Made by a program: the position numbers and the translations under genes. From contig CAZYLT010000024.1 in assembly GCA_964648855.1 (NCBI GenBank), forward strand, positions 1-30,724: a stretch of DNA of 30,724 bases, given 5' to 3'. Origin of the DNA: an uncultured archaeon (GTDB taxonomy: Archaea; Asgardarchaeota; Thorarchaeia; Thorarchaeales; Thorarchaeaceae). This document shows positions 7,904-25,052 of the stretch, piece after piece (positions within the stretch are counted from its first letter, which is position 1; each line of letters starts with the position of its first letter). The notes below the pieces were generated by a model. The model was not told where the DNA came from and searched no databases. It saw only the letters and a program-made list of their open reading frames with translations.

Positions 7904-8644
7904 ATGTTTGGCGTTTCAGGCAAGGGGTACGATACTAGTACAAGTATCTTCAGTCCCGAAGGACGCATTTTTGCCGCAGAATATGCAAAGAAAGCTGTGG
8001 AACAGGGTGCGACTACTCTTGGCGTTCAAGTCAAGGAGGGCGTGATACTTCTAGCCGAAAAGAAGCTACAGCCCTTGCAGGAACCGGACAGTATCGAAAA
8101 GATTGCAAAGGTCGATGATCATATTGGAGTATCGACATCAGGCTTCATGGCAGATGCAAGGCAACTCATTCAGGAGGCTCGTGTTAAGGCTCAGTCCTAT
8201 TGGCTGACTTATGACGAGCAAATTCCTGGTGAAGCGCTTGCAGAACATATCTGCAATGTTAAGGTAACTCGACTCTCGCTCGATATGAGGCAGGGTGGAC
8301 GTCCTTACGGTGTTGCCATGATTATCGCGTCTGTTGACCATGATGGAACTCCTCGATTATTTGTGACTGATCCTGTTGCAACTTACCGAGGCTATCTTGC
8401 TGCAGTCATTGGACGTGGCAGCGATATAGCTGGAGAGCATTTGCAGAAGAATTACAAGAGAACGAAGAAGATGGACTCAGCCATACACCTGGCACTTGCA
8501 GCTCTACGAGAGGCGAGTGATAGCGAACTTGACTCAGAAAACGTCGAGATTGCGAAGATTCCTGTGAAAACACACAAATTTGAGAAACTCTCCAATGAGG
8601 AGATAGCAGCGATTCTTTCCGAAGAAACTAGTAAGAATAAGTAG
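7904..8644 (+). CDS. psmA: Proteasome alpha subunit
   Basis: GYD...IFSPEGR...EYA, G.T.LG, KI.KVDDHI, SG..AD and RPYGV motifs. SD GGAGG at 7890-7894. Confidence 0.95.
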   Translation: MFGVSGKGYDTSTSIFSPEGRIFAAEYAKKAVEQGATTLGVQVKEGVILLAEKKLQPLQEPDSIEKIAKVDDHIGVSTSGFMADARQLIQEARVKAQSYWLTYDEQIPGEALAEHICNVKVTRLSLDMRQGGRPYGVAMIIASVDHDGTPRLFVTDPVATYRGYLAAVIGRGSDIAGEHLQKNYKRTKKMDSAIHLALAALREASDSELDSENVEIAKIPVKTHKFEKLSNEEIAAILSEETSKNK

Positions 8645-17470: not shown

Positions 17471-17733
17471 GAATATAACAAGTGTCCAAAAAATGAGTCT
17501 AAGCAAAATCCATGTAAGGACAACAATGGGTGGTTCTTCACCAATAATCTCCAAGTGTGAATAGAGATTTTCTTATGCAAGATGGAAGATATTTTCTCAG
17601 GCTGTTTAAATGGTCTCTCTAGGTTACCAAGTTCTTCCTCTACTGAAGTGGTTCTGCGACCCCGCAAGACCGTTCTTTACACTTGCAGAAGCTTTGTTAT
17701 GGTAGGTTGTAGTAAAATGGACTAGTGTGCCCA

Positions 17734-19074
17734 ATGAACAATAATACTCGAGTCAAGATGCTTAACAATAACAATGTCCAGCAAGGCAAATACACTCTTT
17801 ATTGGATGCAAGCCTCACAACGAGCAGAAGAGAACCACGCCTTAGAATATGCGATTAAAAAAGCGAATGAACTTGATTTACCTGTATTGTGTGTGTTTTG
17901 TCTAACAAATGAATTTCCAGAGGCATCGGTTAGACATTATCAGTTCATGATTGATGGACTAAGTGAGGTTTCGAGGATCTTAGAAGATCGGAATGTAGGG
18001 TTTGCGGTGGTCCTCGGCAATCCTATTGACAGAATACCACAGGTTGCAGAGGTAGCTTCTCTGGTCGTGGTTGATCGGGATTACCTAAGACTTCAACGTC
18101 AATGGCGCACTCAAATAGCAAAGGTGGTTTCTTGCCCACTCATACAAGTTGAAACCAATGTTGTCGTTCCAATTGAGGAGGCATCGAATAAGGAGGAATA
18201 TGCTGCCTATACTATCAGACCAAAGATTCAGAAGATTCTGGACGAGTACTTGGTCGAAGTTGAAACTCATGCTCCTCAAAGGGCATTTCGCGACTCACTG
18301 ATTTCAGATATTGAGTGCTATTCTCCGAAAGATGCTCTCAATCAGAGTGAAGTTGACCAAGATGTTACGCCAGTTGATTGGATTCAGGGAGGAACTAGTA
18401 ATGCAAAGTCCCGACTCCATGACTTCATTGAGGAGAAACTGGATTACTTTGACACCAAGCGAAATGACCCCTCCGAAGACTTTCTCTCAAATATGAGTCC
18501 CTATCTACACTTTGGGCAAATCTCTCCAATATTCATTGCACTTCAAGTCATGGAAACAGACAGTCAAGGGGTTGAATCCTATCTGGAAGAATTGATTATC
18601 CGAAGAGAGCTAAGTATGAATTTTGTTTACTACAACGCGCATTATGACTCCTTGAACTGCCTGCCCGACTGGGCTCGTAGTACCCTCAAGAAACATGCTG
18701 ATGATGAGAGAGAGTATATCTATAGCCTTGAGGAATTTGATAACGCCGAAACACATGATACCTACTGGAACGCAGCTCAAAAACAGATGATACAACAAGG
18801 GAAGATGCATGGCTACATGCGCATGTACTGGGGCAAAAAGATCCTAGAGTGGACAGATAGCCCAGAGCAAGCACACGAAATCGTTCTTCATCTAAACAAC
18901 AAATACGAGCTGGATGGCCGTGATCCGAATGGCTATACCGGGGTGGCCTGGTGTTTTGGAAAGCATGATCGTGCTTGGAAGGAACGCCAGATTTTTGGCA
19001 AAGTGCGCTACATGAATGCCCGAGGTTTGGAGCGCAAATTCGACATAGAATCGTATGTAAAACAAGTCGGTTAG
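17734..19074 (+). CDS. phr: Class II CPD DNA photolyase
   Basis: YWM...QR...NHAL, EEYAA.TIRPKI, SPYLHFGQIS, EELI.RREL, HGYMRMYW.KKILEW and LN.KY.LDGRDPNGY.G..W motifs. Confidence 0.95.
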   Translation: MNNNTRVKMLNNNNVQQGKYTLYWMQASQRAEENHALEYAIKKANELDLPVLCVFCLTNEFPEASVRHYQFMIDGLSEVSRILEDRNVGFAVVLGNPIDRIPQVAEVASLVVVDRDYLRLQRQWRTQIAKVVSCPLIQVETNVVVPIEEASNKEEYAAYTIRPKIQKILDEYLVEVETHAPQRAFRDSLISDIECYSPKDALNQSEVDQDVTPVDWIQGGTSNAKSRLHDFIEEKLDYFDTKRNDPSEDFLSNMSPYLHFGQISPIFIALQVMETDSQGVESYLEELIIRRELSMNFVYYNAHYDSLNCLPDWARSTLKKHADDEREYIYSLEEFDNAETHDTYWNAAQKQMIQQGKMHGYMRMYWGKKILEWTDSPEQAHEIVLHLNNKYELDGRDPNGYTGVAWCFGKHDRAWKERQIFGKVRYMNARGLERKFDIESYVKQVG

Positions 19075-20961: not shown

Positions 20962-21240
20962 ATATCTACTCGTATCGGTTTGGTCATTGGCCTTCTCTTT
21001 CTACTTGTTTCACTGGCCAGTCGATCCTCTGAGAATCCGTCATCTGATAAGGATCAACTGTCGGGAATAATATACCGAGGTGCAGAGGTAATAGCGCATG
21101 ACGTCGTGTCAAAATCTGTTCCTGCGAATGTACGACGCACATCAACGCATGATGGCAGAAAGAACGAATCATGAACTTACAATCCAGTTCCTTTATGAGG
21201 AAATTATGCCTTACAAGATATATTCACTGAGTGTGATTTG

Positions 21241-23286
21241 ATGAAGTTTGATGTATCAAAAGCCATGAGAGTGAGGCTATCGGACAAGTTACCGCCGTAT
21301 CCGAAGTTTGGCTCCAAGTACAGAAGAGCTCCTAATCGAGGATACGACCTTGATTATGACGATACCATTACAGCAGTCAAGAATGCACTAAGGTATGTGC
21401 CTGAGAATCTCCACAGCGAGTTAGCGCCAGAATTCTTGGATGAACTTATGAACCGTGGCAGAATCTATGCATACCGTTACCGTCCTTCTGGCGAAATAAA
21501 AGCCAAGCGTATTGACGAATATGAAGGTATTTTGGAAGCCCGGGCTCTGCAACTTATGATTGATAATAACTTGGACTTTGATGTCGCCTTATACCCGTAC
21601 GAACTGGTAACCTATGGTGAAAGCGGCCAAGTCTGCCAGAATTGGCTCCAATATCGTCTGATCAAGAAATACCTCAAAGTCATGACTGAGGACCAGACGC
21701 TTGTTGTTAGCTCAGGGCATCCAGTTGGATTGTTTCCATCGCACAGAGACGCTCCCAGAGCAATAACAACGAATGGTCTAATGGTAGGAATGTTTGACAC
21801 TTCTGAAGAATTCCATAGAGCAACCGCCCTCGGCGTCGCCAATTACGGACACATGTCAGCAGCTCGCTGATATGCCGTAGAAATGACGGCGGGCGGATGG
21901 ATGTATATTGGTCCACAGGGGATTGTTCACGGTACTTACATCACACTCCTGAATGCCGGACGACTCTATCTCGACATTCCTGAAGACCAAAATCTCGCTG
22001 GCGTACTTTATGTGAGTTCGGGTCTGGGAGGAATGAGTGGCGCGCAGGCCAAGGCGGTGGAGATATCTGGCGGTATTGGTGTAATTGCAGAGGTAGACAA
22101 GAGTAGGATTGAAACACGGAGTGAACAGAATTGGCTGTCTCTTTGGTCAGATGATTTAGATCAAGTCTTTGAGTGGGTAGATGAACATAGAAAGTCAAAG
22201 AAAGCGGTCTCTATCGGCTATCATGGCAACATTGTAGATCTTTGGCAACACGTCGTTGATAATGACATCAAAGTTGAGCTTGCGTCTGACCAGACATCAT
22301 GTCATGCTGCGTATGAAGGCGGTTATACACCACACGGTGTTTCCTTTGAAGAGGGTCGCGAGATTCTCAAAAATAATAGAGAGAAGTTCAAGAGATTGGT
22401 CGACGAGTCTTTACGTAAGCAATTTGACCTGATAAGGACCATGACGGAACGAGGCACCCACTTCTGGGATTATGGCAATAGCTTCATGAAGGCCGTTTTC
22501 GATGCTGGCATCAAAGAGATAGCGAAAAATGAGCAGGATACAAAGGACGGATTCATCTTCCCATCGTATGTCGAGGATATCATGGGTCCCATTTGTTTTG
22601 ATTATGGATATGGTCCGTTCAGATGGGTCTGCCTGAGTGGAAAACATGATGATTTGCTCAAGACAGATAAGGCTGCCATGTCCTGTATTGACCCAGAACG
22701 ACGGGGTCAGGATCGTGACAATTATGTTTGGATCCGTGATGCAGACGAGAATGACCTAGTCGTAGGTTCTCAGGCTCGTATATTATATGCTGATGCAGAG
22801 GGTCGGGCAACCATTGCACTGAAGTTCAATGAACTGGTAAGAAAGGGCGACATTGGTCCCGTCATGCTTGGTAGAGACCACCATGACACAGGTGGAACAG
22901 ACTCTCCGTTTCGAGAAACCTCTAACATCTATGACGGAAGTAGAATAACCAGTGATATGGCTCATCAGTGCTGGGCAGGGAATGCTGCTCGAGGCATGAC
23001 TATGTGTGTGCTGTCTAATGGCGGGGGAGTTGGAGTAAGCAAGGCAATCAATGGAGGATTTGGCTTGGTTCTTGATGGATCTGAAAGAGTTGATCACATC
23101 ATTAAATCTGCCATTGACTGGGATGTCATGGGCGGCGTTGCAAGACGAGCTTGGGCGAGAAATCCCCATGCAATTGAAACATCTATTGATTGGAACAACG
23201 CTCTTGGCACAAAGGGTCAAATTACACTCCCCTTTATTCCAGAAGAAGGACTTGTGGAAAGACTGGTCCGAGATAAAATGGAATGA
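21241..23286 (+). CDS. hutU: Urocanate hydratase (long ~670-aa type), join(21241..21850,21881..23286), interrupted by a 30-nt BHB intron
   Basis: NNLD..VA..P.ELVTYG, SGHP.GLF, YIGPQGIVHGT, SGLGGMSGAQ, SDQTSCH, DYGN, GPFRWVC, GRDHHD and NGGGVG motifs. Both ORF halves share one frame. Removing 21851-21880 restores NYGQMTAG and gives 671 aa. Confidence 0.95.
21851..21880 (+). other. Putative bulge-helix-bulge (tRNA-endonuclease-type) intron in the hutU mRNA
   Basis: 4-bp central helix ACGG(21845-48)/CCGU(21875-78), 3-nt bulges ACA(21849-51) and AGA(21879-81), 9-bp inner stem 21852-60/21866-74, and outer pairs AUU/AAU. It contains the in-frame UGA. Confidence 0.85.
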
Positions 23287-23314: not shown

Positions 23315-23959
23315 CTAGGAAACTCGTTTTGCTTCACGGTTACACTCTCTATGAGCTGCCCTCAGTGGCTCTGGGTAGAATCTCTTGGTCGCCTCCTTAG
23401 TCACTCTCACTGCAGTTTCAAGGCTGACCCTATGTCCTATTGAAACGAAAACCGGTTTCTTCTTGCCTTCTAGCCAAACTGCTTTTCCTATTACCTCTCC
23501 CTCATCTGTCACATCAGCTCTATCAGCGCATCGTTCCCGAATCTCTCCAAGCAATAGTGTCTTTGCCACTCCAATAGTCTGCAGATTCAGCCTAACTCCC
23601 AACCAAGAGGCGAGTCCACAACGTCGAGGGTGTAGAATTCCATTGGCATCCACAAGAACAGGAAGTCCAGGCTTGACTTTCTTGAGAAGATTCTCCAATA
23701 TTGGCCCCTCCCGGAGAAAGAAGAATCCTGGTACATAGGGGACTTCAGCTTTCCGAACCACAGTTTCATGCCAAAGTGTTGAATAATCTCCATAGTCCAC
23801 TGAAACTGCAGATGCCACCGCAACATCATTGACATAGGCGACATCTACTCCAATTGCAGTAGTTCCCGTTATGGGTGGAAAATCCTCTCTAATGATATCA
23901 TAAGCCAGGTTCTCTTGTTCTACCCTAGCCATCTCCATCATCTCTTCTGTTATCTCCAT
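23315..23959 (-). CDS. nfi: Endonuclease V (deoxyinosine 3' endonuclease)
   Basis: GVDVAY, PYVPG...LRE.P, LVDANGILHPRR.GLAS, IGVAK, PVFVS.GH and PEPLR.AH motifs. Confidence 0.93.
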   Translation of the reverse strand: MEITEEMMEMARVEQENLAYDIIREDFPPITGTTAIGVDVAYVNDVAVASAVSVDYGDYSTLWHETVVRKAEVPYVPGFFFLREGPILENLLKKVKPGLPVLVDANGILHPRRCGLASWLGVRLNLQTIGVAKTLLLGEIRERCADRADVTDEGEVIGKAVWLEGKKKPVFVSIGHRVSLETAVRVTKEATKRFYPEPLRAAHRECNREAKRVS

Positions 23960-24161
23960 GAGGGATTCCAACCTTGTATAAGGAAGCTGTTGGCGAAATG
24001 TGTATCGGTCTCAAGTCATCTGAAATCTGTTTGCCCGTGCTAACCTCCTGGAACTACATCATTCATTTGTCTTGCTTGAGAATATCTGAAGATATTTCAA
24101 TTGAAATGGGCTATCGTTATTAGTTGCATCAAATATCTGTTTGAAAAGGAAGGTGAACATC

Positions 24162-25052
24162 ATGCATCCCACTATGCGCGTAGGCGCGTGCTCTCTCTCG
24201 CCTGTGCCGGGCGATATTGAAGAAAACCTGAAATTCATAAAGAAATGGACAATAAAAGGGGCAGATGAAGAAGTCGATTTACTTCTATTTCCTGAACTTA
24301 GTCTTTCTGGGTATTGGCTTAATCACGAACTCTACGATAAGGCACAACCTCGAGATGGACCTGCGATAACGAATCTCGTTGAATTTCTTGCCAACAAGCA
24401 GCTAGACGTGGCAATTTCTGTCGGTCTTGCTGAGAAACATGGTGGTACTATTTACAACACACAAATCCTCCTAGATAAGGATGGAGAACGCTACTTCTAT
24501 AGAAAAACACATTGGCCGCCAGAGGAGTACAGTTACTGGGGAATGGGGAACAAATACCCCATACATAGATTCAAGGATTTTACCATTGCAACTACTATCT
24601 GTTACGATAATAACTTCCCTGAGATTCACAGAATCTATGGGCTTCAGGGGAGTGACTTGGTTCTAGCTCCTTATTTCTACGGAAAACAATTTTCTCCCGA
24701 TGATATGGATTCAATAACGGACTCAATTTTTGACTGGAAAAACCGTGAGAAAATGTATCTGAGAGCATCCGCAGCGGCAAACTATCACTGGATTGTAGCT
24801 TGTGTCGGCGCTGGTCCTGTGAGTGACAAATATGTACAAAACGGAAACGAAGGGGAGACATATTACGTTCCAGGTGTCATTCTCTTTGTTGATCCGGAGG
24901 GTAATGTGGTAAAAGAGTCATCTGATGAGGAGGTTGTAGTGCAGCTGCTATGGTATGATATTGATCTTGCTGAAAATATGCGGGTACGAAAGAGTGGTCA
25001 TAATTACTTCAAGAACCGTCGTCCTGATACTTACGGCAAGCTCGTTGAATAA
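24162..25052 (+). CDS. Carbon-nitrogen hydrolase (nitrilase superfamily)
   Basis: Catalytic triad FPEL / YRKTH / ICYD..FPE and a C-terminal RRP..Y. SD AGGTGA precedes ATG 24162. Confidence 0.92.
   Translation: MHPTMRVGACSLSPVPGDIEENLKFIKKWTIKGADEEVDLLLFPELSLSGYWLNHELYDKAQPRDGPAITNLVEFLANKQLDVAISVGLAEKHGGTIYNTQILLDKDGERYFYRKTHWPPEEYSYWGMGNKYPIHRFKDFTIATTICYDNNFPEIHRIYGLQGSDLVLAPYFYGKQFSPDDMDSITDSIFDWKNREKMYLRASAAANYHWIVACVGAGPVSDKYVQNGNEGETYYVPGVILFVDPEGNVVKESSDEEVVVQLLWYDIDLAENMRVRKSGHNYFKNRRPDTYGKLVE

Follow-up and report, generated by a model that had tools for sequence, protein, structure and literature searches.

The window analysed here, a stretch of DNA of 30,724 nucleotides (nt), is an entire contig (C24) of a draft genome of 3.11 Mb, with 62 contigs and 44.7% G+C, which we call G000. 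It carries hutU, the gene for urocanase (urocanate hydratase), and the reading frame of this gene is interrupted by a 30-nt insert that contains an in-frame stop codon. Our analysis indicates, with a probability that we put at roughly 87%, that the insert represents a bulge-helix-bulge (BHB) intron which is excised from the mRNA by the enzymes of tRNA splicing. An intron of this kind had previously been proposed by a model that was given the letters of the window (hereafter the sequence-only reading), and direct inspection of the sequence confirms that it had correctly located the insert, its TGA and all elements of the BHB. It had also suspected an Asgard host, and the nearest hutU loci with named records are indeed those of metagenome-assembled genomes (MAGs) of Candidatus Thorarchaeota.

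The interrupted gene appears as two open reading frames (ORFs) of 209 and 467 amino acids, 21238..21870 and 21883..23286, which lie in the same frame with the insert 21851-21880 in between; the first ORF ends at a TGA (21868-21870) within the insert. According to Pfam, the first ORF encodes Urocanase_N, with profile positions 1-123 of 127 matched at its end, and the second encodes the Rossmann-like Urocanase domain, matched from profile position 1 at residue 10, followed by Urocanase_C; the domains become contiguous after splicing. The gene and its predicted parts are as follows.

21241-23286, + strand: hutU, with its stop codon at 23284-23286
21241..21850, + strand: exon 1, amino acids 1-203 plus one base, ending at the C of a Gln codon and containing Urocanase_N
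21851..21880, + strand: BHB mini-intron of 30 nt, built as 1 nt, a 9-base-pair (bp) stem around a 5-nt loop, and then 4 and 2 nt
21881..23286, + strand: exon 2, which begins with AA, the rest of the Gln codon, continues with ATG ACG and encodes the Rossmann-like and C-terminal domains

The end of exon 1 was set at 21850 because the cut rule for BHB motifs and the intronless orthologues both place it there. Removal of the insert in silico joins TAC GGA C to AA ATG ACG, which reads Y-G-Q-M-T within NYGQMTAGG, and yields a product of 671 amino acids that shares 64-92% identity with full-length hutU of bacteria and archaea.

Around the insert, the predicted transcript contains the following elements of the motif.

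21836..21844, + strand: 5' strand of the outer exon-exon helix h; AUU (21842-21844) pairs with AAU (21882-21884), and UCGCC (21836-21840) with GGCGG (21888-21892)
21845..21848, + strand: 5' strand of the central helix H, ACGG, in exon 1; pairs with 21875-21878
21849..21851, + strand: 5' bulge ACA, with the predicted cut at 21850/21851
21852..21874, + strand: intron hairpin h', with the stem 21852-21860 / 21866-21874 (9 bp, one of them G-U) and the 5-nt loop 21861-21865
21875..21878, + strand: 3' strand of the central helix H, CCGU, in the intron
21879..21881, + strand: 3' bulge AGA, with the predicted cut at 21880/21881
21882..21892, + strand: 3' strand of the outer exon-exon helix h, from AAU to GGCGG

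The 4-bp helix ACGG/CCGU thus has a 3-nt bulge at each end, the two being on opposite strands, and beyond these lie the inner stem h' and a weak outer helix h. If each bulge is cut behind its second base (AC/A and AG/A), by the rule that the sequence-only reading had applied, exactly 21851-21880 is excised, and the motif NYGQMTAG and a full-length urocanase are restored. The minimum free energy (MFE) fold has an energy of -22.8 kcal/mol (z = -2.6), leaves the 5' bulge unpaired and keeps both stems.

The comparison with related genomes, which the sequence-only reading had recommended as a check and named as a possible refutation, came out in favour of a conserved structure: the inserts of orthologues differ by compensatory changes that preserve the geometry of the BHB. 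We examined a family of 86 genomes, of which 80 carry hutU. Eight of these 80, from at least 5 genera, have an insert at the identical codon, which we call site B (G000, G001, G035, G008, G065, G066, G093, which is isolate YT5_051, and G036), and in about 70 genomes the Gln codon at this place (CAR) is uninterrupted, with the junction exactly as predicted. The eight inserts are homologous to each other (alignment z 3-9.6 for most pairs). When they are aligned, 95.3% of the cells are paired, as against 33-44% when the partners are slid. Changes on both sides of a pair were found in 7 of the 16 pairs, including 6 of the 9 in the inner stem, and the observed covariation score was reached by none of 500 shuffles. 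As judged from these alignments, the BHB structure at site B is more than chance.

The central helix is 93.8% paired over the eight orthologues and contains one compensatory pair, C21846-G21877, which becomes U-A in three of them. This pair links an exon to the intron, so that the Tyr codon covaries with intron sequence: TAC occurs with CCGU, and TAU with CCAU in G035, G065 and G066, three genomes that sit in separate parts of the hutU tree. The 5' bulge ACA is identical in all eight inserts, and the 3' bulge is ACA or AAA in orthologues of the window's gene. The outer helix (helix 1) is 100% paired, its only changes being from U-A to U-G. The 5' bulge starts at the last base of a Gly codon, which is GGA in every insert-bearing allele, compared with 2 of the 19 intronless alleles listed. 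On the hutU tree the distribution of the site-B insert is patchy and requires at least 5 changes, which implies repeated precise loss or gain.

The exons that surround the insert appear to evolve as those of a working gene. Between G000 and G001, both of which carry the insert, the nonsynonymous divergence (dN) is 0.040 and the synonymous divergence (dS) 0.912, with dN/dS of 0.044; between G035, with the insert, and G026, of the same genus and without it, dN/dS is 0.085 at dS 0.57. By this measure the exons of hutU are under strong purifying selection. The intron, in turn, is identical at 30 of 30 positions in G000 and G001 (locus L004), despite near-saturated synonymous sites in the exons. 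Since about half of neutral sites should differ at dS 0.91, the intron itself is constrained, and selection on it seems to act on the sequence as well as on the pairing.

These data bear directly on the idea that hutU is a pseudogene, inactivated by the insertion of a small palindromic or mobile hairpin element. Such an element would account for the stop codon in the insert, for a hairpin like those of small insertion elements and for the patchy occurrence on the hutU tree. It is difficult to reconcile with the low dN/dS between two insert-bearing genomes. Moreover, no other disruption was seen in the 13 insert-bearing genes, which come from many genera, and the two other hut genes of G000, hutH, which lies at the window's end, and hutI, which lies on contig C43, are intact. 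The intron sequence is also single-copy: elsewhere in G000 it has only chance matches of 11-13 nt and is therefore not a dispersed repeat. We found no Pfam match to a homing endonuclease on the ORFs neighbouring hutU, and no second or duplicated hutU fragment in G000. We give the pseudogene very little credence.

In addition to the orthologous inserts, hutU is interrupted at a second position. In five genomes (G002, G018, G109, G068 and G083) an insert of 31-32 nt follows codon ~127 (V-T-Y-G-E/S-G-Q), which we call site A, and a urocanase-like paralogue of ~37% identity in G034 carries, at the homologous Y-G-Q/M position, an insert of 32 nt that contains a TAG. Their locations are listed below.

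L024:2115-2182, - strand: site-A insert
L025:855-922, + strand: site-A insert
L134:574-641, + strand: site-A insert
L133 and L135, - strand: site-A inserts, ~110 nt upstream of a GGNCARGT motif
L032:789-858, + strand: insert in the urocanase-like paralogue of G034

The site-A inserts comprise four different sequences of common build: ACGG, a 3-nt bulge, a stem of 10-11 bp, CCGN (ACGG in G018 and G109) and a second 3-nt bulge. The insert of the paralogue has a helix GGAC/GUCU, with AAA and AGA as bulges and a cut shifted by 2 nt, and its 3' side is an internal loop with no clean bulge. The exon context of site A, TTACGGAGA, resembles that of site B, TTACGGACA, and TACGGA is common to all three hutU-family sites. 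Alignments of site-A with site-B introns gave z values of 2.5-3.1 over 28 comparisons (most pairs within site B reach 3-9.6); this is a weak hint of homology, which we do not take as evidence for transposition. One further interruption, a split of hutU in G033 near codon 165 (L026:~985-990, + strand), was considered as an intron and rejected: it is a single extra T, that is, a frameshift or a sequencing error.

The lengths and stop codons of the inserts are informative about how the frame could be restored. Removal of the 29-, 31- and 32-nt inserts of the relatives restores the frame in each case. These lengths are not multiples of three, and the frame is therefore lost unless the RNA is spliced; the site-B insert of G036, for example, has 29 nt, and only its removal from the RNA would keep this hutU in frame. 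The stops within inserts may be TGA, TAA or TAG, which excludes the reassignment of a codon. Recoding by the ribosome, either as stop readthrough with an insertion of 10 amino acids or as a hop over the hairpin of the type seen in phage T4 gene 60, would be compatible with the insert of G000, which folds into a stable hairpin and does not shift the frame. It would have to cope with the various lengths and stops of the relatives; furthermore, there are no matching take-off and landing codons, no GGA follows the hairpin, and the translated insert would interrupt the invariant motif NYGQMTAG. We regard recoding as highly improbable.

Several observations weigh against splicing of the insert as a BHB intron. 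First, in the MFE fold the AG of the 3' bulge is paired to UU, producing a 6-bp helix in which this bulge is absent, and the outer helix next to the 3' bulge consists of three A-U pairs only. The sequence-only reading had called the motif canonical; for these two reasons the term is slightly generous. The strict BHB fold, including the outer exon stem, has an energy of -21.8 kcal/mol, 1 kcal/mol above the MFE: it is accessible and nearly as stable, yet it is not the MFE structure. Second, G008 and G036 have an A-C mismatch in place of the fourth central-helix pair, and the site-A insert of G018 and G109 retains only 2 of the 4 central pairs, so that some copies rely on relaxed recognition. Third, exon 2 begins at a conserved ATG, which makes a reading as two polypeptides possible at site B.

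In that case hutU would be a split gene, with the 209- and 467-amino-acid ORFs both translated and their products assembling into an active enzyme, and the hairpin would have no role in splicing. The ATG in question (21883) is in frame and opens the second ORF directly after the insert, and the 209-amino-acid N-terminal fragment is entered as a separate protein in public gene calls; the sequence-only reading had expected automated pipelines to call a pseudogene. No motif resembling a Shine-Dalgarno sequence is seen before 21883 when the sequence is read by eye. At site A, the break falls within the Urocanase_N domain; in the translations of the G068 and G083 inserts we see none of the start codons ATG, GTG and TTG in frame beside exon 2, while G002 has only a TTG in frame and G018 an in-frame ATG within its insert. 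Two independent polypeptides would also leave unexplained the covariation that maintains the BHB, including its exon-intron pair, and the complete identity of the intron in G000 and G001 at a dS of 0.91. The split gene retains a slim chance.

As G000 is a metagenome-assembled draft in many contigs, we also considered that the insert might stem from assembly or sequencing. The raw data carry it, which runs counter to one of the refutations that the sequence-only reading had listed. Contigs from two source runs span the whole of hutU with 0 differences, at depths of 115 and 18. A 163-nt contig from a later sample, of 2021 (X4), covers 21785-21947 with one substitution and no gap, and a 235-nt contig from a marine run of another study (X5) covers 21804-22038 with 14 substitutions and no gap. 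The insert is moreover common to eight genomes, and the probability of an artefact is close to nil. No DNA joint that skips the insert was found among the contigs of the sequencing runs examined; loose ends in these runs belong to intronless relatives and end in ...TACGGACAG directly before 21883. In several relatives, contigs of the assembled genomes break at or near the two hutU intron sites (G020, end of C34 and end of C117; G069, start of C79; G006, end of C103; G021, start of C276; G096, end of C357). Such breaks would fit sampled populations in which alleles with and without the intron were mixed.

The enzymes needed for the removal of a BHB intron are encoded in G000. Two genes belong to the EndA family (PF01974); they lie in the regions C6:63923-64177 and C4:31164-31424. 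One product is alpha-like, closest to chain 3P1Z_B of the Aeropyrum pernix EndA (E = 3e-49), with the Tyr/His/Lys pattern preserved and an N-terminal part that aligns without gaps. The other is divergent, without the His at the aligned position. Asgard archaea have been described to possess an (alpha-beta)2 EndA with an L1 loop, a type linked to a broad substrate range (PMC5829648, PMC12397907), and the predicted EndA pair of G000 matches this enzyme. The ligase RtcB is encoded as well, at C12:38433-39743 (597 bits). In the mechanism that we propose, the hutU transcript would fold such that ACGG of the exon is paired to CCGU of the intron between two 3-nt bulges, one on either side. The heteromeric (alpha-beta)2 EndA would cleave after the second base of each bulge, and RtcB would ligate the exons, the intron being probably circularised. 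The outcome would be an mRNA for the complete 671-amino-acid urocanase, which would act with hutH and hutI in histidine breakdown. We infer cleavage and ligation of the hutU RNA from the structure, its conservation, the restored frame, the selection on the gene and the presence of the enzymes.

The predicted splicing apparatus has many other potential substrates in this genome. ARAGORN reports 42 tRNA genes in G000 and assigns an intron to about half of these; many of the called introns have 30-35 nt. Several of these introns parse as a 4-bp helix with 3-nt bulges (L = 29-35), although our simple BHB parser resolved only some of them, and intron coordinates from ARAGORN are unreliable in a multi-intron genome such as this one. 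The same output includes odd calls: a tRNA-Pyl and three tRNA-SeC with 'introns', and intron lengths of 403-2255 nt. Together with a total of only 42 genes, such calls suggest that many multi-intron or split tRNA genes are misread by standard tools.

Two other protein-coding genes of G000 contain inserts of the same kind, in line with the suggestion of the sequence-only reading that more such introns may be hidden in the genome.

C2:14796-14825, + strand: insert of 30 nt in rpoA2, at trigger-loop codons, containing TAA and TAG
C44:6756-6786, + strand: insert of 31 nt in ahcY, inside the GHPSEV motif

The rpoA2 insert shows a helix GCAC/GUGU, the bulges AUA and UAU and a perfect 9-bp stem, and its removal restores R-T-F/H-Y-A-G. 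The insert of ahcY has a helix CUAG/CUAG with the bulges UGA and AAA, and its removal restores G-H-P-S-E-V. Partial matches to RNA_pol_Rpb1_5 at C2:8719-9281, ~5.5 kb upstream of the rpoA2 insert, could be a duplicated gene fragment. A genome-wide search for BHB motifs had likewise been advised by the sequence-only reading. Scans of G000 that combined the motif with the rejoining of frames recovered hutU cleanly; their rescues were no commoner than with decoy cuts (10 against 9-11 for short introns, ~900-960 against 880-1000 under relaxed settings). As true and decoy cuts rescue frames alike, a filter of structure plus ORF gives no census unless it is combined with homology. The scans also missed both of the inserts just described, rpoA2 because of its short upstream ORF and ahcY because of its bulged stem.

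It is conceivable, although we consider it rather doubtful at present, that BHB mini-introns of ~30 nt form a dynamic population in Thorarchaeota and move repeatedly into and out of protein-coding genes. The two hutU sites, the third in a distant paralogue and the inserts of rpoA2 and ahcY in G000 would all fit such a population. Insertion of these mini-introns would be limited to spots where four exon bases pair with the 3' end of the intron.

A BHB intron in the pre-mRNA of cbf5 was reportedly described by Watanabe in 2002 and by Yoshinari in 2006. In the literature that we searched, the cbf5 intron of Crenarchaeota is the sole BHB intron inside an archaeal coding sequence that has been confirmed (PMC7714728, PMC2738675); it occurs in Desulfurococcales and Sulfolobales (Yokobori, 2009; PMC2738675). 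The predicted hutU intron shares with it the BHB type, the location in a coding sequence and a host with a heteromeric, broad-specificity EndA. Both are patchy among relatives, pointing to gain or loss, and both lead gene callers to annotate the gene as broken. On the other hand, hutU encodes a catabolic enzyme of an Asgard lineage, the Thorarchaeota, whereas cbf5 encodes an RNA-modification enzyme; the hutU family has two intron sites and a third case in a paralogue; and splicing has been demonstrated for cbf5, in contrast to our prediction from sequence for hutU. As the host gene differs, the hutU intron is an analogue of the cbf5 intron and not its orthologue. Comparative data strongly support its placement as a cbf5-like BHB intron of a pre-mRNA, in a gene and a phylum that are both new for this kind.

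The likeness extends to the introns of structural RNAs. Marck and Grosjean are said to have defined the hBHBh' motif of archaeal tRNA and rRNA introns in 2003. The predicted hutU intron has the same motif and the same predicted cuts, and its ~30 nt correspond to the size of the tRNA introns of G000. As in canonical tRNA introns at position 37/38, the central helix has its 5' strand in the exon and its 3' strand in the intron. The difference lies in the host RNA: in an mRNA, codons also constrain the exon side of the motif, such that the Tyr codon covaries with the structure and the Gly codon is fixed by it. The tRNA genes of Asgard archaea have been reported to be heavily interrupted, in a preprint that makes no mention of mRNA (bioRxiv 10.64898/2026.10.13.758758). 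An mRNA as substrate of EndA is also known from HVO_1309 of Haloferax volcanii, which carries a 46-nt BHB intron in its 5' untranslated region (PMC7714728). Unlike the hutU insert, that intron lies in a leader and does not interrupt a frame, and its host has another type of EndA. A parallel may further be drawn with the eukaryotic splicing of HAC1/XBP1, in which Ire1 cuts and RtcB or Trl1 ligates: it too involves protein enzymes acting independently of the spliceosome on a coding mRNA, with RtcB-type ligation and a change of frame. That system differs in its use of Ire1, in its twin stem-loops and in being regulatory, regulation forming no part of the evidence on hutU.

Our results imply that the tRNA machinery may splice mRNA more widely than has been assumed, and this in the lineage closest to eukaryotes. 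In the annotation of Asgard genomes, genes that are probably whole are recorded as truncated or broken, which biases metabolic reconstructions, in the present case that of histidine catabolism. With its natural intron-plus and intron-minus alleles and its two sites, hutU lends itself to the study of intron gain and loss. If mini-introns did form a dynamic population, the closest prokaryotic relatives of eukaryotes would possess a working system for the gain, loss and protein-enzyme removal of mRNA introns, and splicing might even control expression.

Several other genes were recognised in the window. A gene for endonuclease V (23315-23971, - strand) is convergent with hutU. A CN-hydrolase gene at 24141-25052, between hutU and hutH, might be a candidate for the last hut step. 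Further upstream lie a photolyase-domain gene (17725-19074, + strand), the gene for a proteasome alpha subunit (7904-8644, + strand) and, at the start of the contig, an aldehyde:ferredoxin oxidoreductase gene (3-1598, + strand).

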